A stretch of DNA of 64,000 nucleotides, from IMG/VR virus record IMGVR_UViG_3300050343_000215, positions 32,001-96,000 of that record, one strand, 5' to 3'. Both the position numbers and the translations under genes were made by a program. The notes under the pieces were generated by a model. It did not search any database, was not told where the DNA came from, and was given only the letters and a program-made list of their open reading frames with translations. Of this stretch, positions 1-17,242 are shown one piece after another. The DNA is from a virus. The number at the start of each line of letters is the position of its first letter. Position 1 is the stretch's first letter.

Positions 1-950
1 GGCATGGGATTCTCTCCACCATAATCAGGTCTTACCTCAGGATGAACTTCAATATGGAAGTGAGGACCAGTAGAGAATCCAGTATTACCAGACTTACCTA
101 ATACTTCACCAGCATCAATAGTATCTCCATCCTTCACTGCAACCTCACTGAGGTGAGCAAATCTAAACATTTTATTTAATGATGGCACCCAAGCATCTAA
201 AAGTAATCCATAACCTACTGATGGATCATCAGCATTCTGATAACCAACATATTTAATGATAGATTTCTTTTTAAGTGCAAACATTGTCCCGACAGGAACA
301 CCAATATCAACACCACCATGCATTTTTCCCCAACGATGACCATATGCAGAGGTTAGTTCATAACCACTAACATCAGATCCCTCTGTTTCACCTTTTGCTT
401 TAAGTTGCCCCGCGACTGGTTGATATGGAACAATTACAATAGACTCTGCTTGATTAGAAATTCTATTTTCAAATCCTTTGGCGAGAAAGTTTGCCGCCAT
501 AAGTCCAAGAATATTATCAGTCAAAAGTCCGCCACCAGTAGCAGGGTTAAATGAGTTGCTTAATTTATTTGTAGCAAATTTTCTGGCAGTTCTTTTGGCA
601 CGGGAAGTTTTTTGTTTTTGATCGCTGGTCTCAAGTCCATGCAGAGATCTCTTCTGCTCAACTGCTTTCAAATAGTTTGAATGCATCTCGGAGAGAAAAT
701 TCTCCATTGAGTCAAGATAAGTTCCCAATCTAACAAAGAATTTACTCATTGGGTTGGTAGACTTATTCTCAATAATAAGTTGCTTTACCTTCTTTTCAGG
801 AACAACCTCAAGATTTTCTACATCATCTAACTTGAGAATTCCATCAACACTAGCAATAGCAATAGGTGTAATATTATCAGCTACAACAAAGACTTCGGAA
901 GCAAATGCCTCCGAATCTCTCTCTATCATTTTAGTCTTTGCTTTAAACAT
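1..950 (-). CDS. Virion-associated M23 family peptidase (3' end runs off window; absent from ORF track)
   Basis: Manual translation from ATG at 950: ...SAYGHRWGKMHGGVDIG...FAHLS...GKSGNTGFSTGPHFHIEV (HxxxD and HxH motifs); TGATG overlap with the upstream gene. Confidence 0.85.
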   Translation of the reverse strand, partial: MFKAKTKMIERDSEAFASEVFVVADNITPIAIASVDGILKLDDVENLEVVPEKKVKQLIIENKSTNPMSKFFVRLGTYLDSMENFLSEMHSNYLKAVEQKRSLHGLETSDQKQKTSRAKRTARKFATNKLSNSFNPATGGGLLTDNILGLMAANFLAKGFENRISNQAESIVIVPYQPVAGQLKAKGETEGSDVSGYELTSAYGHRWGKMHGGVDIGVPVGTMFALKKKSIIKYVGYQNADDPSVGYGLLLDAWVPSLNKMFRFAHLSEVAVKDGDTIDAGEVLGKSGNTGFSTGPHFHIEVHPEVRPDYGGENPM

Positions 951-3340
951 CAATCAATATCACTATCATGTGTAGATCTAGTAAATACACTCGTTCTCAT
1001 AAAAATATCAGGAGAATCATCACCGACAAAACTAGGTGCTTTCTTCTTACCAGGAATCTTAATATAATCAGGCGGCAGTGGTGTAATGTCTAGTTTCTGC
1101 TCATTTTTACCAGACATCATACTACCTTGAGCATTCTCAAGATTTTGTGATGGCATCGGACCCTTATATCCAGGAGCATTATAATAAGCATTGGGACCAG
1201 TAACCTGATCATACGTGGCTGTAGAAGCAGGATTAACTAATTCATTAATAATTAACTCAGCAAATAATGCAAATGGATTCAGTGCAGAAGAAGGATTGAT
1301 ACCTCTTCCTACAGCACGAACAGGTCTTTCAAATGCCTGACGAACAGCAGGAGTAGGACCAGTTTTTACCATATCAGGTGTGAATGCCTTGAAAGGATTC
1401 CATCCTTTCATTCCTGTTGCACCAGATTTAAATGCTTTATTACTTCTAGTAATTTGTCTGGCATCATCTGCCATCAAACCATCTGGTCCTCTCCATCGCG
1501 CAGTATTCTCATTAGGAACTCTAGTATTTCTACCCTTATTCCACCATCCGGCAAGACCACCATCTGCCATAGGCATAATCTTACTAGACATTCCTCTAAA
1601 ATAATTTAATGATTCACTATTATACAATTGAACATCACCATATCCACCACTTGATTTAGTTTTAATTTTTGGTATTATATCACTACCTTGTAAAAAGTCT
1701 TCTATTTTGGTTTTAGCGGCTGGTTTGTTAAGACTTTCTTGTAAACTTCTCGCATTCATATCTCTTTGAATACCTGCAGGTGCTGGTTGATCCGACAAAT
1801 TTCTAACTTGTCTTTCAATTCCTTTTTGATCTCTTTGTTTTTGGGATACTTTTCTACCAGTGCGAGTTACCTTTCCTCCACCACCTTGCATACGCGCTAA
1901 TGCTCTCTGTCTAGCAGTCATTCCTGCTCCAGGTTTCACTGGTGTAGCAATAGGTTTAGGCGCAACTGTAGTTACAGGTTTAGGAGCAGCAACAGTTGTA
2001 GCAGCAACATCATCTGCCACACCAGTGCCTGCTTTTCCTGCCTTAACAGTAATCTCAGCAACATCATCACTTAAACCAAATAATCTTTTAAGACCAGGAA
2101 CTCTAGAAACAAATGGAACTCCAAGTCTTCTAACGGTGTTTGCGATTGCAGGTGCTTTTGCGGCACCCTGTTGTAATGCACCACCGCCACTCATCATCAT
2201 GACAGTTTCTAATGCAAATTCTAAATCCTTACTGATAGGAAGACCAGTAACTTCAGCTAATGATTTAGGATTAGTAAATCCATCCAACATTGTCTGTAAG
2301 GGATTTACTGCTGGAGGTGGTTCTGAAATTACTGGTGATACTGGTGAGTATTCAGTTTGTTCACCATTAATTTCTTCATTAAGTTGTTTGAGTGCTTCCT
2401 TTGGTGTGAGTGCAGGAGCAGCTGCCTGAGATGCTGCATCAAATTCACCACTGCGTAAAAACTCTTCCGTTTGACCATTAGAATTTGAAAAAGCTAATGG
2501 TGTAGTTGCATCTGCAGATTCATTACTAGCTACCCCTGGATTTAATAAAGGTCCAAAAAGAAACGGTAGGAGTTTTAAAATATCTGGGAACGCAAACCCA
2601 GGTTCAAATTCTGGTTCTTCTTTCTTAGGAGGAATAAGAACACCGGGTGGATTAGGTTGCAGAGGAGGTTTAACCTTAGTCCCTTCGGCAGCAGGATTTA
2701 GAGATGGCTTTGGATTTTTGCTTGGTACAGGAGCGGTGCCAGGGGATCCGCCGGGTCCTCTACCACCGCCACGGCGACCGCCACCAAAAAATGGAAATCC
2801 ACCACCACCAGGCAGTTTAGGTTTCTTAGATCCACCGCCCATGGCGTCAGGATTTTCAAAATCAACAGTCTTATCTAATAGATACTCTTCAAATGTATTT
2901 TGATATAACTCTCTCTTACGCTCAAATAATTCTTTCTCTGTGAGAATCTGTACTTTCTGAAGTTTGACAACATCCTTCATCAACTTTTCAGTTGCTGCCA
3001 TCTTAGCTTCAATCGCCTTCAGATGCCCCTGGATAGTCTTATTCTTTACAGGGGGGATCTTAATATTTTCAATTTTAGGCAGATCCAGAGTCGCAGCAGC
3101 AGGCATCTCTGCCATCCCAACAACCTGATCAGGAGTAACAGGAGGATTGACTGCCTTTACAACAATCTTAGGATCTGTACTGGGGTCTAACCCAGGATTG
3201 CCAACCTTAGGTGGACCCTGTTGAGCAGCAGGTTGACCCTGTTGAGCAGCAGCAGGTTGCTGTTTATTATTAGCAGCAGGTTGCTGACCAGCAGCTGGCT
3301 GATTATTATTAGGTGGTTGATTTGCTGCGGGTACTGCCAT
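950..3340 (-). CDS. Large baseplate hub/tape-measure-like structural protein
   Basis: 796 aa, Q/P/A-rich low-complexity N-terminus, directly after gp26/gp51; function inferred from position. Confidence 0.55.
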   Translation of the reverse strand: MAVPAANQPPNNNQPAAGQQPAANNKQQPAAAQQGQPAAQQGPPKVGNPGLDPSTDPKIVVKAVNPPVTPDQVVGMAEMPAAATLDLPKIENIKIPPVKNKTIQGHLKAIEAKMAATEKLMKDVVKLQKVQILTEKELFERKRELYQNTFEEYLLDKTVDFENPDAMGGGSKKPKLPGGGGFPFFGGGRRGGGRGPGGSPGTAPVPSKNPKPSLNPAAEGTKVKPPLQPNPPGVLIPPKKEEPEFEPGFAFPDILKLLPFLFGPLLNPGVASNESADATTPLAFSNSNGQTEEFLRSGEFDAASQAAAPALTPKEALKQLNEEINGEQTEYSPVSPVISEPPPAVNPLQTMLDGFTNPKSLAEVTGLPISKDLEFALETVMMMSGGGALQQGAAKAPAIANTVRRLGVPFVSRVPGLKRLFGLSDDVAEITVKAGKAGTGVADDVAATTVAAPKPVTTVAPKPIATPVKPGAGMTARQRALARMQGGGGKVTRTGRKVSQKQRDQKGIERQVRNLSDQPAPAGIQRDMNARSLQESLNKPAAKTKIEDFLQGSDIIPKIKTKSSGGYGDVQLYNSESLNYFRGMSSKIMPMADGGLAGWWNKGRNTRVPNENTARWRGPDGLMADDARQITRSNKAFKSGATGMKGWNPFKAFTPDMVKTGPTPAVRQAFERPVRAVGRGINPSSALNPFALFAELIINELVNPASTATYDQVTGPNAYYNAPGYKGPMPSQNLENAQGSMMSGKNEQKLDITPLPPDYIKIPGKKKAPSFVGDDSPDIFMRTSVFTRSTHDSDID

Positions 3341-3465
3341 TACTGTTGTGCTGCTCTACGTGCGTTTTCTTTTTCAATAAAATCAACTAATAAACTCACA
3401 TAGACATCCCGTTCCCACGGCATCATATTTTCTATCTCTGTCAAACTATATTTATGATGCTGCAT
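3340..3465 (-). CDS. gp51: gp51-like baseplate hub assembly ORF (first ATG; frame is open upstream to about 3540)
   Basis: MQHHKYSLTEIENMMPWERDVYVSLLVDFIEKENARRAAQQ; below the ORF-track size cut-off. Confidence 0.8.
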   Translation of the reverse strand: MQHHKYSLTEIENMMPWERDVYVSLLVDFIEKENARRAAQQ

Positions 3466-3515
3466 GAGATTAAAATTTAGTCGGAAATAGTTTTCCAGAT
3501 TATTCTGAAAAACCG

Positions 3516-4229
3516 CTATGCGAAAAAATTTGCTAATCCCTCAATTGTGACATCAGATTTCACACCCGTCTTAGGATTAGTTACCTTTACCGTATGAGTA
3601 AGTCTAGGCATAGTTGAAAAGAATGACTGAACTTTCTGATACTGCTTAGAATTTAGTTGCTCAACAAACTCTTCAATTTCTTTCTTAGTAGAATCTGCTA
3701 CCTCCCATGTCTCTTCATCATTGTAGATAGTATCAATACATTCAACAGCATATTCAAAAGTGCTGTCAATAAGACTTTTCTCGTCATCGGGTTTCTTTTC
3801 CATGATGTATTTCATCGTAGGATACTTCATTTTAATAAAGTAACCATTCTCAAGATCAATCGTATCACTATGTTCTTTAGACTTAACTACCTGAATATCA
3901 TCAATATTGATCTCAACCTCTGCCTGTGTCTCACCATCATCAGGACAGGTGATGGAAAACTCAAGGATCTCGCCAACAGACTTGGCACGAACGTTGAGGA
4001 AGATATACTCAACATCAAATGTAGAAAGAGTATCTAAATCAATCTTAGTTTGTACGCAATTTTCAATGATTTGAATAATAGCACTGGTAACTTCATCTTG
4101 GCTTTCAGACTCCAATGCAAGAAGAAGGATTTTTTCTTCTCTAACTACAAATGGTCTGTATTTTACTTTTTTTCCTGTAGATGGAATTTTCAGTTCATGG
4201 ACAGGGGTGTTAATCTGGGGTAATGACAT
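3516..4229 (-). CDS. gp26: Baseplate hub subunit gp26-like
   Basis: MSLPQINTP..KYRPFVVREEKILL..DVEYIFLNVRAKSVGE..CPDDG..IEGLANFFA. Confidence 0.85.
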   Translation of the reverse strand: MSLPQINTPVHELKIPSTGKKVKYRPFVVREEKILLLALESESQDEVTSAIIQIIENCVQTKIDLDTLSTFDVEYIFLNVRAKSVGEILEFSITCPDDGETQAEVEINIDDIQVVKSKEHSDTIDLENGYFIKMKYPTMKYIMEKKPDDEKSLIDSTFEYAVECIDTIYNDEETWEVADSTKKEIEEFVEQLNSKQYQKVQSFFSTMPRLTHTVKVTNPKTGVKSDVTIEGLANFFA

Positions 4230-4243: not shown

Positions 4244-4924
4244 TTAGAATTCTGCTCCTTTTGTATCGTAAAAGATTACGACATGTTTTTCATACCTAAA
4301 GGATACTCTCAATTTATTTAGTGTGCTAGCACCATACGCTAATGGCACACTCTCAATGTTATAAGGGTATACATTAATCATATCATAATAGCATGAATTA
4401 GATCCAGAAGGACCAGTTCTATCTTTATAACTTTTAGTCACAGTCATCCTAGGACAAACCATTTCATCATAATAACGTAATCCAACAGTGTTGGTTGCCA
4501 TTCTTCTTTTTTCTTTTTCTTCTGGGATAATTTCACCACCTTCGCTATTCATGCTCTGTTCAGGAAACATGCCACCCATCCATGCTTCAAAGAATTTTGA
4601 AGGGCTGAGTTGATTAGTCTGAATAAAACTCAATCGCATATCATTATAAAGTTTAGCATGAGGATATTGAATTAATCTACCTGCATATACACCATCAACT
4701 TCCTGTGTAGCAGTAAATGTTCCCGGCAATGATGCTTCATCACACAAGAACATCATATTCTCAAATGCTCCATCTCCAGAAGTCATACCAAATCCATAAT
4801 ATTGTAATCTGGTTAGAATCTCGGCATTTTTTATAGAATCAAAGCTTAACTTTACCTCATACTCGTTAGAATATGATCCACCCTTATCAACATTGAATAT
4901 CCCTCTAAGCTTAGATATAGACAT
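4244..4924 (-). CDS. Tail tube-like protein (gp19/gp54 family)
   Basis: FLCDEASLPG..GRLIQYPHAKLYNDMRLSF..YPYNIESVPLAYG; probable start MSISK. Confidence 0.65.
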   Translation of the reverse strand: MSISKLRGIFNVDKGGSYSNEYEVKLSFDSIKNAEILTRLQYYGFGMTSGDGAFENMMFLCDEASLPGTFTATQEVDGVYAGRLIQYPHAKLYNDMRLSFIQTNQLSPSKFFEAWMGGMFPEQSMNSEGGEIIPEEKEKRRMATNTVGLRYYDEMVCPRMTVTKSYKDRTGPSGSNSCYYDMINVYPYNIESVPLAYGASTLNKLRVSFRYEKHVVIFYDTKGAEF

Positions 4925-4960
4925 TAACTCTAAATAGAAATACTTGTTCTTCATATATTT

Positions 4961-5395
4961 ATGGCATATTCTGGCAAGTTCAGACCAAAGAACCCAAAGA
5001 AATATAAAGGTGATCCGAGGTTGGTAATATACAGATCATTATGGGAACTAAAATTTATGAAGTGGTGTGACGACCACGATCATATACTTGAGTGGGGCAG
5101 TGAAGAAATTGTAGTTCCCTATCGTTCTCCTTTAGATGGAAGAGTTCACAGATACTTTGTTGATTTCTATGCCAAAGTTCGTAATAAATCTGGGACAGCA
5201 AAGAAATATTTGATTGAAGTTAAACCAAAGAAACAGACAGTTGAACCTAAACTACCTAAAAGAAAAACTAAACGTTATCTCACTGAGGTTACCACATATA
5301 TCACCAATCAAGCGAAGTGGGAAGCAGCAAGGGAATGGTGTGCAGATCATGGACTTGAGTTCATCATACTCACAGAGGATCATTTAAATGTCTAA
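4961..5395 (+). CDS. gp4: Head completion nuclease gp4
   Basis: MAYSGKFRPKNPKKYKGD..YRSLWE..WGSEEIVVPY..YFVDF..EVKP. Confidence 0.9.
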   Translation: MAYSGKFRPKNPKKYKGDPRLVIYRSLWELKFMKWCDDHDHILEWGSEEIVVPYRSPLDGRVHRYFVDFYAKVRNKSGTAKKYLIEVKPKKQTVEPKLPKRKTKRYLTEVTTYITNQAKWEAAREWCADHGLEFIILTEDHLNV

Positions 5396-5846
5396 GGGAT
5401 TTGGTAGTAATGACAGAACACAAGGTGGATTGGAGAAACATATCATAAAGAATTCTGGCGGTCAGAAAAAAAGTAGAGAGTGGTATCGCAGAGAAGTCTT
5501 TGAATACCTCTACGATAACATGACTGATGAGATTGAACCAGAAAAACTTTACTTCTATGAATATGATCCGAAATATAAAGAAAAGATGGATAAATATGAC
5601 ATATATCCTTTAGTATATGCCTTTGATCGTGGTAAAGATAACTTTCTAGGTTCAAATATTCATTACCTTCGTGACAGAGAGAAAGGTCCGTATGCTCTTG
5701 CCCTCCTAAATAAAAAAGCAAGGATTATTGAAAAAACAATCCATCGTTATATCTTCAAACAAGCTGATAATTTATTCTTTGAAGTGAAAGAAGAAGATTG
5801 GGAATTTATAGCATCTCTACCCATCCATAAGTTTATAGACAACTAA
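5388..5846 (+). CDS. gp2: DNA end protector gp2-like
   Basis: FYEYDPKYK..YDIYPLV..GSNIHYL; adjacent to gp4. Confidence 0.75.
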   Translation: MSKGFGSNDRTQGGLEKHIIKNSGGQKKSREWYRREVFEYLYDNMTDEIEPEKLYFYEYDPKYKEKMDKYDIYPLVYAFDRGKDNFLGSNIHYLRDREKGPYALALLNKKARIIEKTIHRYIFKQADNLFFEVKEEDWEFIASLPIHKFIDN

Positions 5847-6904
5847 TGCCATCCGCTGCTTTTTTACCATCAACGCGATATCCAGTAGAATTTTCCTCTA
5901 ATGGTCCTTCTGTGGACTATCTTGAGATGCAATTTATTAGAAGAGATTATAAGAGCACAGATATAAAATATTTTCCAGAACCTTCATTAAACAAGATCTT
6001 AGTTTACGTTCCTCAAAAAGTAACTGAAGCAATCTCGCAGCAGTTTAATCAAACTACACTTGGTGAATTAGGTAGTTTTCTTGGATCAAGAGCAGACGCT
6101 GGTGTGGCTGTTAAAAATGCACTTACAAGAACTGCTGAGCAGTTTTTATTAAATAAATCTGTTGATGTCGCTAATAAATTAGGTGCAACAAACCTCTCTG
6201 CTTCTGGATTGCTTTCAGCAACTAGTGGTGTTGTGTTCAACCCAAATCTTGAAGTTCTTTATGAAGGACCAGACTTCAGGACATTTAATTTCCAGTTTAA
6301 CTTATTCACTAAGTCAAGAGCAGATGCATCAGCAATTTTTAACATTGTAGAAACTTTAAGAGTGGCAAGTTTACCTAGTTCATCTGGCAATCCTAATACA
6401 AAAGCGATGGCAGATGTATTTACAGATACATCTGCTATTGACACTGCAACAGGGTTATTAGACATCGGTGCAGGAGCAGTAACTGGGGCTATTTCAGGTA
6501 AGATAAGCTCAGCATCCACTGCTGCAAAAGGAGGTAAACAGGGAGCTTTAGATAAACTTTCAGGTCTTTTTGCTCCAGCAGGAACGCTCCTAGGAGCTGC
6601 TGCAACTGCTGGCGGTTTCTTATTTAACGGTGGTTCTAGATTTATCAAACAACCTCCATTCATACTTCTTACATATAAGAGAGGAGCAGATGATCATCCT
6701 TTTATCAAACCACTGCTCCCATGCGCTATTAATCAGATTAATTTTGATTTTACGCCAACTGGAAACTACACTACAGTAGGTGAATTTAATGCTGACCCAA
6801 AGGCAACTACTGTTGGAGTCACAATTACTATGAATCTCACTGAAGTGACAAATCTATTTGCTGATAAAATGTTCACCGAAAGAGCACCAGGAGTCAAAAG
6901 CTAA
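5846..6904 (+). CDS. gp48: Baseplate tail tube cap gp48
   Basis: FNPNLEVLYEGPDFRTFNFQF..PCAINQINFDFTP. Confidence 0.8.
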   Translation: MPSAAFLPSTRYPVEFSSNGPSVDYLEMQFIRRDYKSTDIKYFPEPSLNKILVYVPQKVTEAISQQFNQTTLGELGSFLGSRADAGVAVKNALTRTAEQFLLNKSVDVANKLGATNLSASGLLSATSGVVFNPNLEVLYEGPDFRTFNFQFNLFTKSRADASAIFNIVETLRVASLPSSSGNPNTKAMADVFTDTSAIDTATGLLDIGAGAVTGAISGKISSASTAAKGGKQGALDKLSGLFAPAGTLLGAAATAGGFLFNGGSRFIKQPPFILLTYKRGADDHPFIKPLLPCAINQINFDFTPTGNYTTVGEFNADPKATTVGVTITMNLTEVTNLFADKMFTERAPGVKS

Positions 6905-7599
6905 TGCCCGGATTTTTCTCATATCTACCAAAAATAGAATATACTCCAACTAGAACTAAATTTCAGTTTACTAATCAAGATTTTGTAGTCGCTGTAAATA
7001 TTTTTAAAGGATTGAGTATTAATAATTCTGTATATACTACAGATTTATTTAAAGAATTTCAATTAAGAGATGGTGTTAGACCGGACCAAGTTGCTGAGGC
7101 AGTTTATGGTGATTCTAGTTATGATTGGGTTATTTTACTAACTAATAAAATTGTTGACCTTAAAAATGATTGGCCATTAAGTAATTCAGAATTTGAAAAA
7201 CTTATTACTAAAAAATATACTAATCCACACTTAGTAAAAAACTACCTTACCAAAGAAGTCAAAAATGACATTGGTGAGATAATTCTTCCTAGTGGATTAG
7301 AAGTATATTATAATCCAAACGATCAAGACTCATTTAAAATTACATACATTAAATCATATAATCCAATAGTAGAAGAAACTGAGAATGGTGCAACATTATT
7401 GACATCAATTACTTATTATGAGTGGGAACAACAACTCAATGAAGAAAAAAGAGTATTGCAAGTTCTTAAACCAGATTATCTTGAGACCTTTGTAAAAATC
7501 TTCAATGCATCAGCAAATTATATGCGTGATGTAAAAGCTGATGCTGGAATAAAGCAAACTTTAAACAAAACTAGCATCTTTAACAATATTACTCTATAA
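6904..7599 (+). CDS. gp53: Baseplate wedge subunit gp53
   Basis: FFSYLPKIEY..DGVRPDQVAEAVYGDSSYDWVILLTN..DWPLS. Confidence 0.85.
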   Translation: MPGFFSYLPKIEYTPTRTKFQFTNQDFVVAVNIFKGLSINNSVYTTDLFKEFQLRDGVRPDQVAEAVYGDSSYDWVILLTNKIVDLKNDWPLSNSEFEKLITKKYTNPHLVKNYLTKEVKNDIGEIILPSGLEVYYNPNDQDSFKITYIKSYNPIVEETENGATLLTSITYYEWEQQLNEEKRVLQVLKPDYLETFVKIFNASANYMRDVKADAGIKQTLNKTSIFNNITL

Positions 7600-7611
7600 A
7601 ACCTCACAGAC

Positions 7612-7644
7612 AAAAAAATACCCCGAATTTTTTTTCGGGGTTTT
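7612..7644. terminator. Bidirectional intrinsic terminator
   Basis: A-run, CCCCGAA/TTCGGGG stem, T-run, between convergent genes. Confidence 0.8.
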
Positions 7645-7651
7645 ATGGAAT

Positions 7652-7861
7652 TTAAAAACCCAATTCGTAGCAGGAAGATCTTGCTAGGTCTGGGTTTTTT
7701 TTGAGTGTTCTATGAACATGACCATGCACGTCTGCTTCTAAAGTAAGGTGTGCTTTAGTATGCACAAACTGAATCACAAATAACATTCCAACAAAAGTAA
7801 GATTTAGATAAGTAACTGGGTGATTCAGACCTTTCCAAAGAAACTTGATCACTTTATTCAC
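7652..7861 (-). CDS. Hypothetical membrane protein
   Basis: 69-aa ORF with one hydrophobic segment. Confidence 0.6.
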   Translation of the reverse strand: MNKVIKFLWKGLNHPVTYLNLTFVGMLFVIQFVHTKAHLTLEADVHGHVHRTLKKNPDLARSSCYELGF

Positions 7862-7971
7862 TTAATGAACTTGTCCATACGAAGTTTGACATAATACATT
7901 CCGATGACCCATACGGAGAAGAGGAACCCCTCCCCGTAGGACATGGAGTTCCAAGCATGTACTGCTTCCAT
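7858..7971 (-). CDS. Small membrane protein
   Basis: Manual: MEAVHAWNSMSYGEGFLFSVWVIGMYYVKLRMDKFIK; overlaps both neighbours. Confidence 0.65.
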   Translation of the reverse strand: MEAVHAWNSMSYGEGFLFSVWVIGMYYVKLRMDKFIK

Positions 7972-8174
7972 CACTCTTGATTCTTCTTATTGAATCCGAA
8001 TGGTCCTTCTTTATCTTCCAATGCAAATTTTAATGCAATACCACCAACAGCTTCCATAACCTTTAGGATGTCCTCTGACTTAGCATTCTCACCCAGTTCT
8101 TTGGCAACATACCAATACTTTGGCCAGAATGTTTCACCTGCTTTTTGATAGTCTTCAACAGTTAAGATTTTCAT
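7971..8174 (-). CDS. Hypothetical protein
   Basis: 67-aa ORF, ATGA overlap with gp32. Confidence 0.7.
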   Translation of the reverse strand: MKILTVEDYQKAGETFWPKYWYVAKELGENAKSEDILKVMEAVGGIALKFALEDKEGPFGFNKKNQE

Positions 8175-9136
8175 GAATCTTCTTCAGCAAGGCGAGCGAA
8201 GTATGACAGGGTGTCATCATTGTCAGTCGTAGGAGCAGAACGTGTTGCAACAGTGGGTTGCAGTTCACTCAGTTCCTTACGGATTTCTGGAGTGGCAGGA
8301 CGTGAAGGAAATGAAGGTGCTCCCATGATGTCAGAATCATTGAAACCACCACGACCTTCAGACTCATCTTCCATAGTTTCACGATCAAACTTCTTGCTGG
8401 TTGTACGACCGAGCACAACATTCAAACGTGACTCAAGTTCCTCATAGGACTTAAAGTTCTTAGCATCCATGAACTCATTCAAAGAATGCTGTGACTTCCA
8501 TACTTGCTCCAGTTCAGAGTCAGCCATGTCCTCAAGGGTAGAAGGGACAGCAAAATCAGACTTATCATAGTTCCAATAACCATCCTTCTTCTGCAGCTTC
8601 AGTTTGAAGTTAGCACCCTGCCACATATCAAATGGATTGATAGGAGTCTCATCTTGAAACTCAGGTTGCATTGCTGCCTGAATCTTGTCAAAGATCTTCT
8701 TACCAAACTTATAGAGGAAAACTTTACCCTCGTTACCAGGGTTAGTAGGATCACTTACAACATAGATGTTGGAGTAGTAAGAGAGTTTACGCTTCTGCTT
8801 ACGAGCAACCTCCTTGTCGCTGTCAAGACCACTGTTCCATAGTGTACGGTTGAGTTCCGACACGGGATCTTTCTTACCCAGAGTGGTTAGAGAGTTTTCA
8901 ATATACCATCCACCAGTACCTTGGAAACCGTGGGACCAGACCTTTGCCCAGGGAAGTTCTTCACCATCAGGAGCAGGCAGGAAGCGGATTACTGCGTAAC
9001 CGTTACCAGACTTATCCATCTCGGGTTTCCAGAAACGATCATCACTGCTACCACCAGTAGCTTGGAGTTTGTCAATCTCCTTAGTCAGACGATCAAAACC
9101 AAATTTAGAGCTGTTTTTAAGATCAGCAAAAGACAT
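8171..9136 (-). CDS. gp32: Single-stranded DNA-binding protein gp32
   Basis: DDRFWKP..GNGYAVIRFLP..GWYIENSLTTLG..acidic C-terminal tail. Confidence 0.95.
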   Translation of the reverse strand: MSFADLKNSSKFGFDRLTKEIDKLQATGGSSDDRFWKPEMDKSGNGYAVIRFLPAPDGEELPWAKVWSHGFQGTGGWYIENSLTTLGKKDPVSELNRTLWNSGLDSDKEVARKQKRKLSYYSNIYVVSDPTNPGNEGKVFLYKFGKKIFDKIQAAMQPEFQDETPINPFDMWQGANFKLKLQKKDGYWNYDKSDFAVPSTLEDMADSELEQVWKSQHSLNEFMDAKNFKSYEELESRLNVVLGRTTSKKFDRETMEDESEGRGGFNDSDIMGAPSFPSRPATPEIRKELSELQPTVATRSAPTTDNDDTLSYFARLAEEDS

Positions 9137-9162
9137 TCGTATTACCTTGTATTGTTTGTATT

Positions 9163-9193
9163 TGTTGGATTACGATGACCCAACAGGATCATC
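9163..9193 (-). promoter_or_regulatory. H-type pseudoknot in the gp32 leader (candidate translational operator)
   Basis: S1 GATGATC/GGTCATC, S2 TGTTG/CAACA; CTAAATA late promoter at 9206-9200. Confidence 0.65.
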
Positions 9194-9202
9194 ATACACT
9201 AT

Positions 9203-9544
9203 TTAGAGGTCGCCGTCAAGCACCTGCTGACGGACATTCTCCATGTTTTTACGGAAACTATCATAGATCCCTAACATGTCAAGACCATCGGCATCCATGC
9301 CTAGTGTCTTAGCAGCACGTCGGAATTCTGCTTGCAGTTCCTTTGCCATAGGATCATCAGAAAGATTTAATCTCATGTAAAATATTTTTTGACGCTCAAT
9401 CAAGTCCAGCATTGCATCAAAAAAATCTATACGATCATCTGATGTCATCATAGGAATAAATGGCATCCTATTAACAATTTCTTGCTGCTTAAGACTAATC
9501 TCTTCAGCTTCTTGTTGTACTATTTTTGAATCAAAGAAAGACAT
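9203..9544 (-). CDS. DUF1825-like protein
   Basis: MSFFDSKIVQQE..QKIFYMRLNLSDDPMA. Confidence 0.7.
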   Translation of the reverse strand: MSFFDSKIVQQEAEEISLKQQEIVNRMPFIPMMTSDDRIDFFDAMLDLIERQKIFYMRLNLSDDPMAKELQAEFRRAAKTLGMDADGLDMLGIYDSFRKNMENVRQQVLDGDL

Positions 9545-10137
9545 TGGTGATCTAATACTTTTTCCTTTAACGTATGCTTATATTTAACAGTATCCACAGT
9601 TATGAATGAGGAATACTTTATGACGGTTCTCCTTACATCACTCCAGACTATAGTCTCAGTAATCTTATTATCAAACTGTGGTATGAAATTTAAAATTTGA
9701 TTTAAAATAACAAAAGTTTCCATGGAAATTTGTTTTCCCAAAAGAAACTTTAGTAATGGTGGGTGAGTCTCTATGATCTTGAATAGTTGATCAAACTCAT
9801 TTACCTGTTGTAATAAAAAATCTACATCCTCACTAAAGTTATAGTGAAGACTCTCCATACGTTTCTTCCATGCTCTGTAATTGTCATCACCATCTGTTCT
9901 GACCATCTTACCAATCCATCCAGATGAATCAGCAATAAAATTTGCTACAAAGTATGGAAGAATTTCTGCATCCTTCTTACGATTCGTAAGTTTTTTAAAG
10001 AAGTAACGATCTTTTCTTTTTTCAAAGTTAGTCTCTGTTACTCTAGTTTTACCATTGAATTTAAAGTAATCATAACTGTCGGTAGTGAAGTGTAACTTCA
10101 GTGCGACATACATTTTATAGGATTCAAAAGCGGTCAT
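9520..10137 (-). CDS. gp59: Helicase loader gp59
   Basis: FESYKMYVALKLHFTTDSYDYFKFNGK..RKDRYFF. Confidence 0.85.
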   Translation of the reverse strand: MTAFESYKMYVALKLHFTTDSYDYFKFNGKTRVTETNFEKRKDRYFFKKLTNRKKDAEILPYFVANFIADSSGWIGKMVRTDGDDNYRAWKKRMESLHYNFSEDVDFLLQQVNEFDQLFKIIETHPPLLKFLLGKQISMETFVILNQILNFIPQFDNKITETIVWSDVRRTVIKYSSFITVDTVKYKHTLKEKVLDHQCLSLIQK

Positions 10138-10140
10138 TTT

Positions 10141-10899
10141 TTAGTTCTGTTCTTGCCACCAATCTATTAAATCAGCGTCATTAATCATAGGATCATAATC
10201 AAGAGCATTCCGCCCAGTTCTTCTTTTATAATCTATAAACGTAGTAACAGCATACCTTCCATTACCACTATAATAGTCATCACTATCAATTTTTACAGTG
10301 CGAACACCATGCGCTGCATAAGGTGGAATAATAATCATGGTGTTATTATTACATGGAAATTCATAATTATCAAAATGCTCAAAGAATAATTCACCACCAG
10401 TAAACTTCTTCGGTTCTTTATAAAGATATGTGAAAAGTATGTATGCAAATGGTGCATCAGTATGCGTTTCATACCCCTCATTGTTATGATAATACCTAAG
10501 TTTCGTGAAGGTATCAGTAGGAGCAGGAATACTACGCACACTGTAGTGCGATTGTTTCCATTCTCGTAAATATGGTTTCAACCTATTAAGAAGAATAGTC
10601 TCTATAGTTAATATTCCTGACAGATTTCTTGCCTTACCAGTAAATGTTGGTGTCAAAGGAATTGCAAGCGCACTGGTCAATGGCACCCCACCGCGATTGC
10701 TTTGCAACGCTGGATTGAAATTCTGAGGTTGTCCAGGAGTAGGTTTCTTTTCGGCAGCACCATAATCCTTCGGCAACATTAATTTTCCTGGTTTGGTGAA
10801 AAAATTAAGTTCTTCCCAGATAAGTTCTAATTCATGATCTTCATATACTTCCTCAACAATTACATGTGGGAAGGGTTCCGTCAAAATTTTAACTTTCAT
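10141..10899 (-). CDS. 2OG-Fe(II) oxygenase
   Basis: YETHTD..KKFTGGELFF..HGV..GRY. Confidence 0.85.
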   Translation of the reverse strand: MKVKILTEPFPHVIVEEVYEDHELELIWEELNFFTKPGKLMLPKDYGAAEKKPTPGQPQNFNPALQSNRGGVPLTSALAIPLTPTFTGKARNLSGILTIETILLNRLKPYLREWKQSHYSVRSIPAPTDTFTKLRYYHNNEGYETHTDAPFAYILFTYLYKEPKKFTGGELFFEHFDNYEFPCNNNTMIIIPPYAAHGVRTVKIDSDDYYSGNGRYAVTTFIDYKRRTGRNALDYDPMINDADLIDWWQEQN

Positions 10900-11159
10900 A
10901 AAATAAGTCGTGCCTTTGATGATCTTTTCATAAAGTTAAGACGTTGAGCATCAAACTTTAGTTTTTCTTTCAGTGGTTTAGAAATTAATTTTGATACTGT
11001 TTCAATCTCAATGTTGTTTTCAGCGCAATAGTGGATTACACATTCAATGTAATTCATTGTACCATTACTAATCTTCTTCAGATTCTCAATTTCCATGGAG
11101 AATTTTGAAGCAGTCATGAATTTCTTTTCAAGAATGTCATTAAGGTTTTCCTCAGACAT
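10896..11159 (-). CDS. gp33: Late transcription co-activator gp33
   Basis: YIECVIHYCAENNIEIETVSKLISKPLKEKLKFDAQRLNF. Confidence 0.85.
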   Translation of the reverse strand: MSEENLNDILEKKFMTASKFSMEIENLKKISNGTMNYIECVIHYCAENNIEIETVSKLISKPLKEKLKFDAQRLNFMKRSSKARLIL

Positions 11160-11844
11160 TAGCAAACTTTTCCCCCTTATGATAGTTAACAAACTCATTA
11201 ATGTACTGCTCCAATAGTTTCATATAGTACATTTTATCATACTTTTCAAACAATTGCACCTCCCCATCTTCACATGCTTGAATAATTACAAGTTTTTCTA
11301 CTTCAATGCCTGTGAGATCGTAATATAAAGCACCATAAGCAGCACATTGAACAAAATAATGCTCAATCCACTTCTCAGGTTTTTGTTTCCGTGAAGTTTT
11401 GAAGTCTACAATTGCCAGCTCACCTTTATATTCTGCGATACAATCAACGCGACCTGCGAGACCGAAATACTCACTATAGAGGGGAGCTTCTAGAGCGTGT
11501 ATATTATTTATGTCACTGAAATAAGGAAGGGAATTCTGAAACAATTGATATGGTTTACTGATCTGTTCCATAAGATCTTTTGGTTTAACCTCAAGATTAT
11601 TGAAATGATCCTCCGCATATGCATGATACTTAGTACCACGAGTTGTACCTTGTTTAGAGATACGATCTGCTTCAACAGCACCAACACGTTTACGCCATTC
11701 TGCAATACTCTTGCGAGATTTCAATGATGTGATAGACGTGATTGATGGTAGTTTCCTACCACTAGGAGTACAATAATAACGTACTCCATTTATCGTAGTA
11801 GGATCAGGGAGTTCACTTAAAGAATTACCAACATGATTAAACAT
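11152..11844 (-). CDS. PD-(D/E)XK exonuclease
   Basis: RGTKYH..AGRVDCIAEY..IVDFKTS..YFVQCAAY. Confidence 0.85.
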   Translation of the reverse strand: MFNHVGNSLSELPDPTTINGVRYYCTPSGRKLPSITSITSLKSRKSIAEWRKRVGAVEADRISKQGTTRGTKYHAYAEDHFNNLEVKPKDLMEQISKPYQLFQNSLPYFSDINNIHALEAPLYSEYFGLAGRVDCIAEYKGELAIVDFKTSRKQKPEKWIEHYFVQCAAYGALYYDLTGIEVEKLVIIQACEDGEVQLFEKYDKMYYMKLLEQYINEFVNYHKGEKFANV

Positions 11845-11845
11845 A

Positions 11846-12601
11846 CTAAAGACCGAGATTCATTTTACTTACAAGGTAGGACTTCACTAGTCCAGAACGG
11901 ACAATATCATCAATGCCAAACTCAATAGAACTAAACTCTTCCATGTCCTCTAGGATCTTCATGAAATCAATAATACCATTTTTCTCATGTTGTTTGACTA
12001 GATCAGTCTGAACTACGTCACCACAGAACATAATCTTAGAGTTCTCACCAACACGAGTGATGATACTATCAAGTTCATGGAAGTTCAGGTTCTGTGCTTC
12101 ATCAATCAGAAGGATAGCATTATCAAACGTAGTGCCACGAATGAATGATGTAGACCAGAACGACACAGTTCCCTGTGATTTTAAGTTAGTGTATAAGAGA
12201 TCAAATGAATTATCATCTGGCATTTTGAACATGTACTTCACCATGTTCTTGTATGGAATCTGGTAGAGCGAAGATTTATCTTCGTGGTCTCCAGGAAGAA
12301 AACCAATTTCTCTAGTTGCTACCAAAGAACGAACGATGTAGATCTTCTCATAGGGAGAGTTCTCATCCAGGACATCTTTAAGCGCAAGATATAATGCGAT
12401 GAAAGTTTTACCTGTTCCAGCAGCACCATAAGCAAAAATATTCTGATCCTTACTCCAATCATTAAAAAACTTTTCCTGATTTTCAGTGAGTGGTTCAATA
12501 GTTTTGAGATAATCACTATTAATGGGCTTCTTTCGCTTCATCTGTTTGGTGGACATACCACCAGTTACTGGGTTAGATGATGTGTGTCTTTTTCTAGGCA
12601 T
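11846..12601 (-). CDS. phoH: PhoH family ATPase
   Basis: GAAGTGKT..GFLPG..RGTTF..DEAQN..GDVVQTDL. Confidence 0.95.
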   Translation of the reverse strand: MPRKRHTSSNPVTGGMSTKQMKRKKPINSDYLKTIEPLTENQEKFFNDWSKDQNIFAYGAAGTGKTFIALYLALKDVLDENSPYEKIYIVRSLVATREIGFLPGDHEDKSSLYQIPYKNMVKYMFKMPDDNSFDLLYTNLKSQGTVSFWSTSFIRGTTFDNAILLIDEAQNLNFHELDSIITRVGENSKIMFCGDVVQTDLVKQHEKNGIIDFMKILEDMEEFSSIEFGIDDIVRSGLVKSYLVSKMNLGL

Positions 12602-12613
12602 TTAATTCTTTAA

Positions 12614-12847
12614 TCAAGTATAACGGGAGAGGTTTGCGTTGGGGTGTCGCTTTTGCACTTTCTGCATTACTTCCTTGAACCCAGCAGATTGTTTAGGTTC
12701 CCCATATATTGTACCACCAAATGACGCTTGTGACCAGTCCTTGTCCCATTGAGGGTTATCCTTTCGCCACTGTTCATACTCAGAGATTGACATCTTGAGT
12801 TCTAGAGTGTCTCCGTTTTTCAAGTTTTTGACGTTGTATGTCGGCAT
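12614..12847 (-). CDS. Hypothetical protein (FmdB-like N-terminus)
   Basis: MPTYNVKN..77 aa. Confidence 0.65.
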   Translation of the reverse strand: MPTYNVKNLKNGDTLELKMSISEYEQWRKDNPQWDKDWSQASFGGTIYGEPKQSAGFKEVMQKVQKRHPNANLSRYT

Positions 12848-12874
12848 GTTTTTGCTCTCAGTTAAGTATCTATA

Positions 12875-13402
12875 TCAAACCCAGTCTGGTTTGCGGGATG
12901 GGTCACGAAGATAATTAGATGCAACCCAAGGTTTGCTGCTAATGTACATTTTGTAAGCAGTAATAGTATCAATGCTTGTGTCAAATTTAAACTCATCGGG
13001 CATAGCACGAACAAAGGGCGTTGTATGCTTCCCTGAGCGTCCTTGAGGATCAGCAGTAGGAAGTATATCTTTTGCTGCTAGAAGGGTCTTCTGGCAGGTG
13101 TGGACCTTACCGTAGCGAGCAGTATACTCATCACACATAGCAAGACCATGTGCAAGTAACCACTGCCAGTTAGTTACGAACTCATTCGCCCAGATAGTAC
13201 AGGGGTGATTACGAAAAGCACCCTTCTCAGTAGCATAAGGAGTACCGTCTGCTTTGGGAAGAGTGCCGAAGTTATGTCCCCATTTGTCCGAGCATACAAT
13301 AGCAAGCATCTGGCAAGTCTCTAGGGGCATCTTGACAATGTGCTTGTCAGGGAGAACCACAGCAGACTTATATGGACTAGGATCAGTTACAAAGATGTTC
13401 AT
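12875..13402 (-). CDS. Pyrimidine-dimer DNA glycosylase-like protein
   Basis: MNIFVTD..DKHIVKMPLETCQML..NHPCTIW..EYTARYGKVH. Confidence 0.7.
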   Translation of the reverse strand: MNIFVTDPSPYKSAVVLPDKHIVKMPLETCQMLAIVCSDKWGHNFGTLPKADGTPYATEKGAFRNHPCTIWANEFVTNWQWLLAHGLAMCDEYTARYGKVHTCQKTLLAAKDILPTADPQGRSGKHTTPFVRAMPDEFKFDTSIDTITAYKMYISSKPWVASNYLRDPSRKPDWV

Positions 13403-13608
13403 ATCAATTTAGATAACGAGATGAAGAGCAGGAATGCTAACATTATAACCACATCCCAGGATTTTGTCTTTATAAAGTAAGGAACTGAAATAAGATCCGC
13501 AATGAAGTGTGCGCCCACACCAACTAATACATTTACATGAAGGACGATGAAGTAGGCAACAATGACGAGAGCACTACCTATGATCCTTAAACGAACTACA
13601 TTTACCAT
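13399..13608 (-). CDS. Small membrane protein
   Basis: 69-aa hydrophobic ORF. Confidence 0.65.
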   Translation of the reverse strand: MVNVVRLRIIGSALVIVAYFIVLHVNVLVGVGAHFIADLISVPYFIKTKSWDVVIMLAFLLFISLSKLI

Positions 13609-14234
13609 TCAAGTGCTTCTGATACTGCAGGGAACTGTTCTTTGAAAACGTCACGAACACCTTCAGCAACAATCATATGTTCCTTCTGAGTGCCATGAGC
13701 GGACCTTAGATCAATATAATGTACCCATGACCGAACTGAGCCTGTCATGTAGATTTTTGTGGGCGTACAGAGTGGAAGCACATTTCTTGCACATTCCTTT
13801 GCCACACCTCGCTCTAGCATTTGTTGATACAATGCCATTGCCGAATCAAATAATGTCGTCATTTGGATTTCCATATTCTGGACATCAAATGCATCCAGAT
13901 CATCAATGGAATTCTGACGATTCTTGGTGTCCTGCCTACGGAGTTCTGGTAGGGGGATCTTCGGACCCAGTAAGGAACTATCAGCATAACGTTGGGAAAA
14001 TTCTTGGAATGTAAATGAACGGTGCCTCAGGATCTGAGCTGCGATTGCCCTAGTCGTTTCAATTTCAACAGTCATGTATGCCTGCTCAAAGATACTCCAG
14101 TGTTGATGCTTAATACAATACTTCAGAAGACCACTGAACTTCTCATTATCCTGGTTATTGGGGTTAGACACACGAGCACAGTATGCCATGTGTTTTTCGG
14201 CATCTGGGGTAACAGAGACAATCTTAACAGTCAT
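13602..14234 (-). CDS. thyX: Flavin-dependent thymidylate synthase
   Basis: HWSIFEQA..QILRHRSFTFQEFSQRY..ECARNVLP. Confidence 0.95.
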   Translation of the reverse strand: MTVKIVSVTPDAEKHMAYCARVSNPNNQDNEKFSGLLKYCIKHQHWSIFEQAYMTVEIETTRAIAAQILRHRSFTFQEFSQRYADSSLLGPKIPLPELRRQDTKNRQNSIDDLDAFDVQNMEIQMTTLFDSAMALYQQMLERGVAKECARNVLPLCTPTKIYMTGSVRSWVHYIDLRSAHGTQKEHMIVAEGVRDVFKEQFPAVSEALEW

Positions 14235-14258
14235 TCTACGATGAAACAATATGGAGTT

Positions 14259-14287
14259 ATTTTAGCAATAAAAAAGGAGGGCGTCAA
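14259..14287 (-). promoter_or_regulatory. Sigma70-type promoter of thyX
   Basis: TTGACG-17-TAAAAT with extended TG. Confidence 0.75.
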
Positions 14288-14786
14288 GGGGGGTCAGTCA
14301 GAAATGATTCTACTTCATCGCAATCAAGAACATAGAATTGAGATGATTTGATTCCTCTGTTCAACATCTGCATGATCCTATGCTTACCATCAATCATTCT
14401 ATACCTGTTCCCATATGGATTAGGAGCACCTTCTACAATTATTCCTGGAATTGTTATGTCTGCATTAAGATATCTTAATGATGGTCTTTCTTCACAACAG
14501 AAACAATTCTCTCCAGTGTTATGTGGATGATGATGCTTCCCTAACCAAGCGATGTTGTGTAGTTCTACAGTTTGTATGTTGTCATGGGTAAGTAAATGAT
14601 AAATGTCTTTCATGCGAATGAAATGAAGTGTTCCTAGTTCTTCATTGGGTTTTGCCCACTCCCAATTACCTGTTGCTACGGTATACCATGCTTTATGACG
14701 CCTCCTTCCAGGAAATGGTTCTGGTGGTAATGTCAATTGTTCCTCATAGTTTTTTGCATCATAGCATAAAAAAGGAGGGCGTCAAG
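14268..14786. repeat. 21-bp direct repeat flanking the ParB-like gene
   Basis: ATAAAAAAGGAGGGCGTCAAG at 14268-14288 and 14766-14786. Confidence 0.9.
14284..14736 (-). CDS. ParB/Srx N-terminal-domain protein
   Basis: PGIIV..RYRMIDGKHR; true start may be the ATG at 14747 if one base is missing. Confidence 0.65.
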   Translation of the reverse strand: MTLPPEPFPGRRRHKAWYTVATGNWEWAKPNEELGTLHFIRMKDIYHLLTHDNIQTVELHNIAWLGKHHHPHNTGENCFCCEERPSLRYLNADITIPGIIVEGAPNPYGNRYRMIDGKHRIMQMLNRGIKSSQFYVLDCDEVESFLTDPP

Positions 14787-14792
14787 CCCTCC
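14757..14792 (-). terminator. Terminator whose loop carries a -35 box (TTGACG-16-TATGAT)
   Basis: GGAGGGC-TTGAC-GCCCTCC-TTTTTT. Confidence 0.75.
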
Positions 14793-14800
14793 TCCACAAA

Positions 14801-14953
14801 TCAATCTGGATAACCGTCATCGTCATCCCCTACTTTATAATTATCTGTACTTTTATACAGATCTATATCGGAATATATTTCGCTTTCCAACGCATCTACA
14901 AGTAACTTTAAATTCGTAAGTATTAACTTTAGCCTATCCCTATCTACCTGCAT
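14801..14953 (-). CDS. Small hypothetical protein
   Basis: Manual: MQVDRDRLKLILTNLKLLVDALESEIYSD...GYPD (50 aa). Confidence 0.7.
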   Translation of the reverse strand: MQVDRDRLKLILTNLKLLVDALESEIYSDIDLYKSTDNYKVGDDDDGYPD

Positions 14954-14965
14954 GAAACCTCCATA

Positions 14966-15003
14966 ATAAAAAAAGGAGGGTTACCCCCTCCCGATTATTT
15001 ATA
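14966..15003 (-). terminator. Intrinsic terminator preceded by a TATAAATA late promoter
   Basis: GGAGGG/CCCTCC stem plus T-run; TATAAATA at 15003-14996. Confidence 0.7.
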
Positions 15004-15014
15004 CTACTGTAATA

Positions 15015-15182
15015 TCACTTACTGTAGGTGCGTCCACGATAACAAAATGTACCATGGGTTTGCTTACTCTCTACACAACGTGTATCATACTCAACACCAC
15101 GATATGAGGTGTGAAGAACTTGTGCGTCGTGAAGTGCAGATACTTTATTGATCTGCTTCTTGATCATGTTTAGCGTGTTCAT
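15015..15182 (-). CDS. DUF4278-family peptide
   Basis: Manual: MNTLNMIKKQ..TSYRGVEYD..TFCYRGRTYSK (YRG motif twice); AGGAG SD. Confidence 0.75.
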   Translation of the reverse strand: MNTLNMIKKQINKVSALHDAQVLHTSYRGVEYDTRCVESKQTHGTFCYRGRTYSK

Positions 15183-15217
15183 TTAATTTACTCCTGAAAG
15201 TTAGGGTTTTTAATTCC

Positions 15218-15401
15218 CCGTTCCTTCAGTCGTGTGCGTCCCATGGATAACATTCAGGGGTTGATTCCTTCATGACCTCAATCAATTCCACCTTATATTC
15301 GGGAGGAATATTCTCATTTGTTCTCATCCGAATCATAATTGAATCGGCTTGAGCACAGCTGAGAGTTGAATAGAATAGTAATTCTAACATGGGATGAACG
15401 G
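15218..15401 (-). ncRNA. Glutamine-II (Downstream-peptide)-like aptamer 2 with ORF-sized loop
   Basis: CCGTTC/GAACGG outer stem; TCCCATG/CATGGGA inner stem; 3' GACGCACACGACTGAAGGAACGG. Confidence 0.6.
15226..15390 (-). CDS. 54-aa ORF nested in aptamer 2
   Basis: Manual: MLELLFYSTLSCAQADSIMIRMRTNENIPPEYKVELIEVMKESTPECYPWDAHD. Confidence 0.7.
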   Translation of the reverse strand: MLELLFYSTLSCAQADSIMIRMRTNENIPPEYKVELIEVMKESTPECYPWDAHD

Positions 15402-15403
15402 CT

Positions 15404-15447
15404 CCGTTCCGCGACTTACTTGCGTCCTCCTTACGGGGGATGAACGA
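15404..15447 (-). ncRNA. Glutamine-II-like aptamer 1
   Basis: CGTTCA-TCCCCC-GTAA-GGAGGA-CGCAAGTAAGTCGC-GGAACG. Confidence 0.55.
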
Positions 15448-15454
15448 TGGTAAC

Positions 15455-15500
15455 AGTGTACATTACTATTTAGTATATGTCAACTGTATAATGCAATACA
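15455..15500 (-). promoter_or_regulatory. Sigma70 promoter with embedded late promoter and upstream NtcA-like box
   Basis: TTGACA-17-TACACT; CTAAATA in the spacer; TGTA-N8-TACA at 15485-15500. Confidence 0.75.
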
Positions 15501-15502
15501 CT

Positions 15503-15700
15503 TTAATATTTTCTTAAAGTTTTAAGATGTTCTACGATGTTATCACGTACCCACATAAGTTCATGATAGCATTGTTGGTTATGAGCACACTGACGCAGTG
15601 CAGGATCTGGTTTCAATACACTCTCAATAAACAAATCTAGACCACGATTCCACTTTACTTCTTGAGATTCACTGCCATCAATAACATACTGATCTTTCAT
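15503..15700 (-). CDS. Hypothetical protein
   Basis: 65-aa ORF in a tight operon. Confidence 0.7.
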   Translation of the reverse strand: MKDQYVIDGSESQEVKWNRGLDLFIESVLKPDPALRQCAHNQQCYHELMWVRDNIVEHLKTLRKY

Positions 15701-15936: not shown

Positions 15937-15939
15937 TTG

Positions 15940-16802: not shown

Positions 16803-16930
16803 AGCACTTCTTGCTCTGGGTTAAGATTCTTGACGAATTGCACAGGATCCTTTTCGGACTTATGTACCCAATGATAACGCATCATCTCAAAAATAGGATC
16901 CCATGTCGCGACACAAACATAATCAGTCAC
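16799..16930 (-). CDS. Hypothetical protein
   Basis: Probable GTG start (TDYVCVATWDP..). Confidence 0.5.
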   Translation of the reverse strand: MTDYVCVATWDPIFEMMRYHWVHKSEKDPVQFVKNLNPEQEVL

Positions 16931-17237: not shown

Positions 17238-17242
17238 ATTGT

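Follow-up and report, generated by a model that had tools for sequence, protein, structure and literature searches.

A probable programmed -1 ribosomal frameshift joins gp26 to a start-less gp51-like frame in a T4-like phage

In a 64,000-nucleotide stretch of viral DNA from an uncultured marine T4-like phage (positions 32,001 to 96,000 of IMG/VR virus record IMGVR_UViG_3300050343_000215) we analyzed gene gp26 and the gp51-like reading frame that overlaps its 3' end. This whole stretch is referred to as the window, and all positions are those of the window. The sequence evidence makes it highly probable that gp26 carries a programmed -1 ribosomal frameshift, in the style of dnaX, on U UUU UUC. 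The gene would give a major product of 237 amino acids (aa) and a minor one of 296 aa, which would functionally be the gpG and gpGT of T4-like phages. A preliminary description of this DNA had proposed such a frameshift, and its interpretation was supported overall by the heptamer, the -1 phase, the coding signal and the colinearity with T4 gp51.

In the mechanism that we propose, most ribosomes translating gp26 would read AAT TTT TTC GCA and halt at TAG, which would produce the short form of 237 aa. In a minority, both tRNA-Phe would re-pair to UUU UUU as the ribosome slips back by one base on U UUU UUC, and translation would go on through 60 further codons of the -1 frame to make the 296-aa long form with its helical tail. 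The slip would be promoted by a GAGG motif ~10 nucleotides (nt) upstream, by the heptamer and by an 11-bp hairpin starting 7 nt downstream. The short and long products would be the counterparts of T4 gp26 and gp51 and, to judge from their fold and the order of the genes, those of lambda gpG and gpGT. As an abundant short and a rare long chaperone, they may jointly prepare the tape-measure/hub protein for assembly of the baseplate hub and tube. We infer the ribosomal slip itself, its frequency and the binding partners of each form.

The junction was read on the minus strand, where the 3' end of gp26 is GAG (3542-3540) GGA TTA GCA AAT TTT TTC GCA TAG (3518-3516). The coordinates previously assigned to the two overlapping heptamers in this sequence, and to GAGGGA ahead of them, proved exact when rechecked on this strand (Table 1). 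In the -1 frame a TGA at 3543-3541 is followed by an open stretch from 3540 to a TAA at 3342-3340, confirming that this frame runs from just above the slip site into the gp51-like open reading frame (ORF). Upstream of the ATG at 3465 this frame encodes G I S K F F R I A V F Q N N L E N Y F R L N F N L. No ATG, GTG or TTG is present in it from the TGA to 3465, and no Shine-Dalgarno (SD)-like sequence is present upstream of the ATG at 3465. A shift on either heptamer gives the same predicted trans-frame product of 236 + 60 = 296 aa, matching the fusion that had been predicted beside the 237-aa gp26. A scan for sigma-70 promoters and terminators on the minus strand, from gp26 to the small ORF, found nothing.

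Conservation of the junction was assessed in a comparative survey of 110 IMG/VR loci and 10 annotated phage loci (120 in total), with the complete junction available in 118. The sequence T TTT TTN was kept in 114/118 loci, ending exactly one codon 5' of the gp26 stop, and occurred as TTC in 107 of these, TTA in 6 and TTT in 1. The spacing of heptamer, one codon and stop was constant in 114/114 loci, the stop itself being TAG, TAA or TGA. Carriers of the heptamer include S-SSM7, Caulobacter Cr30, Stenotrophomonas Yut2, Aeromonas Ah1, Cronobacter LPCS28 and a KVP40-like Vibrio phage. The codon 5' of the run was AGT, TCT, AAT, GCT, GAT or GGT (44 clusters at 75% identity); it encodes S, N, A, D or G, yet always ends in T. 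The first Phe codon was TTT in every cluster, though TTC makes up 34% of the Phe codons in these genes, and from each gene's own codon usage the occurrence of xxT TTT in all 40 independent clusters has P ~10^-16. Given this value, and since the T6 heptamer was kept at the same codon position in 114/118 loci, chance does not account for the junction feature.

Position 7 of the heptamer was C in 38/40 clusters, against the preferred Phe codon TTT (P = 4e-16). The base at this position is also the first base of the -1-frame Arg codon, and at one locus (L024) TTA GAA preserves that Arg (as AGA) while both zero-frame residues change. Of the two heptamers initially described, T TTT TTC was found to be conserved and A AAT TTT was not (24/118 loci). 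The conserved and putatively functional slip site is T TTT TTC, not A AAT TTT.

Other gene ends were seen in some relatives. In Ackermannviridae (L037:2190-2260, L038:2250-2320 and L041:2170-2240) gp26 ends ..ATT TTC ATT TAA, and in Vibrio phage D510 (L040:2120-2190) it ends CTT TTC AAG TAA; neither has the T6 heptamer. At these loci the gp51-like extension nonetheless overlaps the end of gp26, in the -1 frame and with no start close by. The arrangement suggests a non-canonical slip site, perhaps with tRNA-Phe shifting from UUC to UUU.

The homology of the extension lay in the -1 frame in 113/113 loci where it was detectable, and began at the heptamer. The 64-aa -1 translation of the window matched phrog_634 ('baseplate hub assembly catalyst') over residues 3-64 (2.2e-28), a span that takes in 23 residues ahead of the ATG, and it also matched the C-terminal 47 positions of phrog_150. 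A coding signal was present 5' of the ATG as well. Across the 19 start-less codons in the window's clade, 38/58 nucleotide differences fell at -1-frame third positions (P = 5e-7), and for every 4-11 base changes there were 1-2 residue changes in the -1 frame, vs 3-6 and 4-9 in the zero and +1 frames, respectively. This pattern of substitution shows purifying selection in the -1 frame on the 19 codons from the slip site to the first ATG. The first -1-frame ATG was found at +5, +14 or +53, depending on lineage, and because its position wanders in this way there is no conserved independent start for gp51. Aeromonas Ah1 has no Met whatsoever near the junction. The extension was 47-97% identical to that of the window across 67 other aligned lineages, with 13 invariant residues, and was predicted to be helical throughout (predicted local distance difference test score, pLDDT, 75). 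A complex prediction for the 62-aa extension with the upstream tube-fold protein scored 0.00, which gives no verdict either way.

Within the extension, contig depth at window positions 3412-3465 was up roughly 10-30-fold in DNA runs X2 and X4, and many short contigs of other organisms aligned solely to this segment. From the depth spike and the short contigs, the DNA for the MQHHKYSLTEIENMMPWER part of the extension is unusually conserved in nucleotides among related phages.

Elements flanking the heptamer were also assessed. The GAGGGA motif ends 8 nt 5' of the heptamer, or 10 nt if the GAGG core is taken as the reference point. The Glu codon eight codons 5' of the stop was GAG in 32/36 clusters vs 30% in the rest of the genes (binomial P = 4e-13), bearing out the dnaX-like upstream SD of the earlier proposal. 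This conserved GAG is followed by GGN, often with a G ahead, producing (G)GAGG ~10 nt upstream of the heptamer. On these codon counts, the presumptive SD-like motif is held by synonymous codon choice.

A predicted hairpin (3514-3489), which was absent from the preliminary description, begins 7 nt 3' of the heptamer and forms part of the signal. The 82-nt stretch containing it had a folding energy of -14.4 kcal/mol (z -2.0). Most lineages have hairpins of unrelated sequence 4-7 nt 3' of the heptamer, and the 42 nt 3' of the site folded better than the locus background in 11/15 lineages (p<0.035); Fisher's combined P for the 15 lineages was 1e-12, a value that is overstated since some of the lineages are related. 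Within the window's clade, stem pairing was kept in 98.9% of cells vs 33-61% when the partners were slid, and five stem pairs were altered on one side only, with pairing preserved. An Rfam search at the site returned no family match.

T4 gp26, of 208 aa, and T4 gp51, of 249 aa, serve as chaperones in hub assembly (Leiman et al., 2010, PMC3004832, Table 2). The gp26 of the window matched PF12322 (T4_baseplate) over residues 10-237 (1.1e-72) and phrog_150 (4.5e-78). Both T4 proteins matched full-length PF12322, gp51 doing so with residues 1-201, and the last ~48 residues of gp51 (~202-249) matched phrog_634 and the tail of phrog_150. The preliminary description was right that T4 gp51 looks like a gp26 paralogue with a tail resembling the -1 segment. 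In a joint alignment, T4 gp51 was colinear to its end with twelve frameshift fusions, including the 296-aa fusion of the window, with which it aligned end to end; at the junction DVFKLL in T4 gp51 stands against NFFRIA here. T4 gp26 stops three residues past its FF, where the short form stops. In the window the gp51-type C-terminal tail is encoded only in the -1 frame, and its attachment to the PF12322 domain requires the frameshift.

The genome of the window phage (177,686 bp, 95% complete) holds a single PF12322 gene, and the one phrog_634 match in it lies at the junction, so that the frameshift would be the only route to a gp51-type protein in this genome. Full-length gp51 was found in 1380 records, from Tevenvirinae, RB49, 44RR, RB16 and Acinetobacter phages. 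The heptamer was absent at the gp26 end in four two-gene phages: T4 (GAG TTC TTT), RB16 (GCG TTT TTA), Octan (GAA TTT GTT) and 44RR (without the motif). Its absence there and the single PF12322 gene here support the earlier suggestion that one frameshifting gene may replace the two of T4. In RB16 (L124:1201-2494), full-length genes 51 and 26 form a tandem on the same strand, the gene order being 48, 54, 51, 26, 25, and this arrangement may be an intermediate in the history of the duplication.

On balance, we lean towards a -1 frameshift that is ancestral to the T4-like superfamily, by which we mean the cyanophage-, KVP40- and Aeh1-type phages, Cr30, Menderavirus and, carrying a variant site, Ackermannviridae. 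Genes 26 and 51 of T4 would then be a later duplication that hard-wired both frames, and the tail-chaperone frameshift would be universal in long-tailed phages, the relatives of T4 among them. The 'catalytic' gp51, long a puzzle, would resemble gpGT, acting as the rare long chaperone of gp29, the tape measure protein.

The fold of gp26 was examined in an AF2 model (pLDDT 87.6), in which residues 1-95 form a tail-assembly-chaperone-like domain that is followed by a C-terminal domain. The gp26 sequence profile found no solved relative, and Foldseek with the model against PDB gave no match at E<=0.001. In a structure search independent of Foldseek, residues 1-95 matched 3fgx (Z 7.9), 3klu (Z 7.6) and 2ob9 (Z 7.4-7.6), with a root-mean-square deviation of 3.9-4.4 Å over 83-85 residues, most of each chain, at 7-13% identity. 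All three structures are tail assembly chaperones (PMC9603447). These top three matches are the three solved structures of such chaperones; the next scores were 5.4 and then 3.9, the latter being the next unrelated match.

In one GenBank record, that of Acinetobacter phage Octan (MT409116.1, L125:489-1956), gp26 and gp51 are both labelled 'tape measure protein assembly chaperone'. The chaperone assignment is accordingly not new in view of this record, and it is the frameshift itself that seems to be new. No published report of a gp26/gp51 frameshift was found, in a searched literature that covers few subscription journals, so novelty is unproven.

Several observations weigh against a programmed frameshift at this site. 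The trans-frame product is a prediction from the sequence. In several lineages (S-SSM7, Cr30, Yut2 and D483) an ATG lies 1-5 nt past the stop, and the small protein may there be initiated independently or by coupling. A fold Z score <8 can arise from a common arrangement. The FF motif is conserved in the protein, so part of the T-run is explained by coding, though not the choice of TTT or the T that ends the codon ahead of it; GAG-GGN likewise codes for a conserved Glu-Gly. The stems are not positionally homologous across clades, and no double compensatory changes in the hairpin were found within the clade.

The same junction could arise with no recoding at all, if a small gp51-like peptide were translated alone and the T-run were a by-product of FF in AT-rich genomes. 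The peptide would here be 41 aa long, starting from the ATG at 3465, and elsewhere would start from an ATG at or just past the gp26 stop, through translational coupling. Database records annotate it in this way, and the ATG overlaps or closely follows the stop in the S-SSM7, Cr30, Yut2 and D483 lineages named above. We nevertheless consider this explanation unlikely, as the 19 codons without a start are under -1-frame purifying selection and both phrog_634 and T4 gp51 align across them, while Ah1 lacks a Met near the junction and no SD precedes the ATG at 3465. The conservation of xxT TTT TTC and of the GAG codon also exceeds the needs of the protein, and T4 gp26 encodes its own FF as TTC TTT. 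Transcriptional slippage on the T6/A6 run, by which some mRNAs would lose one U or gain two and so bring the extension into frame, would have a homopolymer at exactly the right place, and its outcome in frame would equal that of a -1 ribosomal shift. Known transcriptional slippage sites need runs of ~8-9 or longer, and a run of six is short. The C selected at position 7 caps the run at six, and the SD-like motif and hairpin stand at ribosomal spacings. A contig of RNA run X15 also spans the T-run without an indel, which is weak evidence since contigs drop rare variants. Slippage of this kind is, in our judgment, quite improbable.

Homopolymer runs are also prone to errors, and an assembly error in the T-run might have split one gene; otherwise, the extension might be the dying remnant of an ancestral fused gene. 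Against an artefact, the same frame break was seen in 113 independent loci and in independent DNA runs. The length of the run also stood at T6 when checked on assembled contigs, with those of the independent DNA runs X4 and X10 and of RNA run X15 crossing it without an indel. Among the 120 closest gp26 protein clusters (60-98% identity, from many samples), 119 were 235-239 aa long and one was a 179-aa fragment, so that 0/120 were an in-frame fusion. Against decay stand the identity of the extension across the 67 other lineages and its 13 invariant residues. We regard an artefact or decay as extremely improbable and favor a programmed ribosomal frameshift at the heptamer.

The genes around the junction were also analyzed. 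Their order is the tube-fold gene (PF23849), gp26 with its extension, and a gene encoding a 796-aa protein. In 96 loci gp26 is closely preceded by the end of an ORF of 180 codons or more, and the 80 listed upstream ORFs scored 113-1058 against the tube-fold protein of the window (BLOSUM62 local alignment). The 796-aa protein had no match in Pfam or PHROG, and BLASTP of it against T4 gp29, the Cr30 tape measure and the syntenic proteins of S-SSM7, Yut2, Ah1 and D483 gave none either. No match to phrog_1283 (T4 gp29) was found in the genome of the window phage. The proteins at this position in Cr30 and Vibrio D483 match tape-measure PHROGs, weakly. The label 'tape-measure-like' that had been given to the 796-aa gene thus found no sequence support in Pfam, PHROG or BLASTP, and position is what remains for it. 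At window position 3283, in ORF 950-3340, contigs of three independent DNA runs were 15 nt shorter, and the Gln/Pro/Ala-rich N-terminus of the 796-aa protein is thus polymorphic in length, with the reading frame kept. The product of the next gene, with its Peptidase_M23 domain, is likely a tail-associated cell-wall hydrolase, judging from that domain match. At 4961-21335 the window carries genes of T4-like marine phages (gp4, gp2, gp48, gp53, gp32 and gp59) together with auxiliary genes for PhoH, a 2OG-Fe(II) oxygenase-like protein and a Nol-like carbamoyltransferase.

Table 1. Features of the gp26 junction and neighboring genes in the window.
Feature	Position	Strand	Basis or remark
gp26, zero-frame short form, 237 aa	3516-4229	minus	ORF; PF12322, phrog_150; AF2 model; chaperone fold matches
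Zero-frame stop TAG, one sense codon 3' of the heptamer	3516-3518	minus	Spacing constant in 114 heptamer loci
Slippery heptamer T TTT TTC, proposed -1 shift site, tRNA-Phe in P and A sites	3522-3528	minus	114/118 loci
Overlapping second heptamer A AAT TTT	3525-3531	minus	Only where the preceding codon is AAT, 24/118 loci
SD-like GAGGGA, proposed upstream stimulator	3537-3542	minus	GAG codon bias
Predicted hairpin, 11 bp with 4-nt loop, proposed downstream stimulator	3489-3514	minus	Folding; pairing in the clade
-1 frame extension, 60 codons, CGC to TAA	3340-3522	minus	phrog_634; homology to T4 gp51 C-terminal tail
19 -1-frame codons from slip site to first ATG, without own start codon	3466-3522	minus	Codon-position bias of substitutions
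41-codon ORF that gene callers would list as 'gp51'	3340-3465	minus	ORF list
Tail-tube-fold protein, 236 aa, immediately upstream of gp26	4244-4954	minus	PF23849 Phage_TTP_2, 7.6e-29
796-aa Pro/Gly/Ala-rich protein, immediately downstream; candidate tape measure/hub protein, by position only	950-3340	minus	
Next gene, Peptidase_M23 domain (8.6e-14), runs off the window end	3-953	minus	Start overlaps the stop of the 796-aa gene

T4 serves as the reference phage for contractile tails, and to our knowledge the T4 group has seemed to lack the otherwise near-universal frameshift of tail chaperone genes. If the proposed frameshift is real, hundreds of genome records of cyanophages and other T4-like phages mis-annotate a start-less fragment as an independent 'gp51'. 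The pair gp26/gp51 would become the G/GT of T4-like phages, providing a concrete and testable model of the role of these poorly understood hub chaperones, and the alternation of frameshift or duplication would represent two evolutionary routes to the same protein pair in fixed proportion. The compact cassette of SD, UUUUUUC and hairpin would be useful for studies of -1 frameshifting in marine hosts.

The closest counterpart in signal layout is E. coli dnaX, whose -1 cassette consists of an upstream SD, A AAA AAG and a downstream stem-loop. Both have an SD-like core ~10 nt upstream, a heptamer and a hairpin 5-7 nt downstream, at similar spacings. They differ in the heptamer and its tRNAs, which are Phe/Phe here vs Lys/Lys in dnaX. 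In dnaX the shifted frame stops almost at once, giving a shorter product, whereas the shift proposed here would evade a stop and give a longer one.

The -1 frameshift of tail assembly chaperone genes is reportedly conserved in long-tailed phages, with lambda gpG/gpGT as the known pair, and P2 E/E+E' is an example from a myovirus. As in lambda G/GT, the frames here overlap, the second lacks its own start, an X XXY YYZ heptamer lies near the end of the first, and the pair follows a tube-fold gene and directly precedes a long gene. The short form has the predicted chaperone fold (Z 7.4-7.9), the N-terminal 85-95 residues of the gp26 model superposing on the solved chaperones HK97 gp13 (2ob9), B. 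subtilis YqbN (3klu) and Geobacillus Rbstp2171 (3fgx), and the extension of the long form is likewise ~60 aa. In contrast to the lambda pair, there is no sequence similarity to gpG/gpT, gp26 has an extra ~140-aa domain past the chaperone-like domain, and U UUU UUC lies one codon 5' of the stop, flanked by an SD-like motif and a hairpin. In addition, the downstream gene is not recognizable as a tape measure protein gene, and the T4 homologues of the gp26 pair act in baseplate-hub assembly.

With T4 the window shares the family (PF12322/phrog_150), the end of the short form, which is that of gp26, and the whole of the fusion, tail included, which corresponds to gp51. T4 gp26 and gp51, together with their homologues in Yut2, Ah1 and D483, contain two cysteine pairs (e.g., CPKCG and CPECG) that resemble a zinc ribbon; the paired cysteines have been lost from the window's clade and from the cyanophage-type proteins, which read NPKTG. 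Genes 26 and 51 of T4 are separate, divergently transcribed paralogues without a slippery site, whereas in the window there is one gene and a predicted frameshift.

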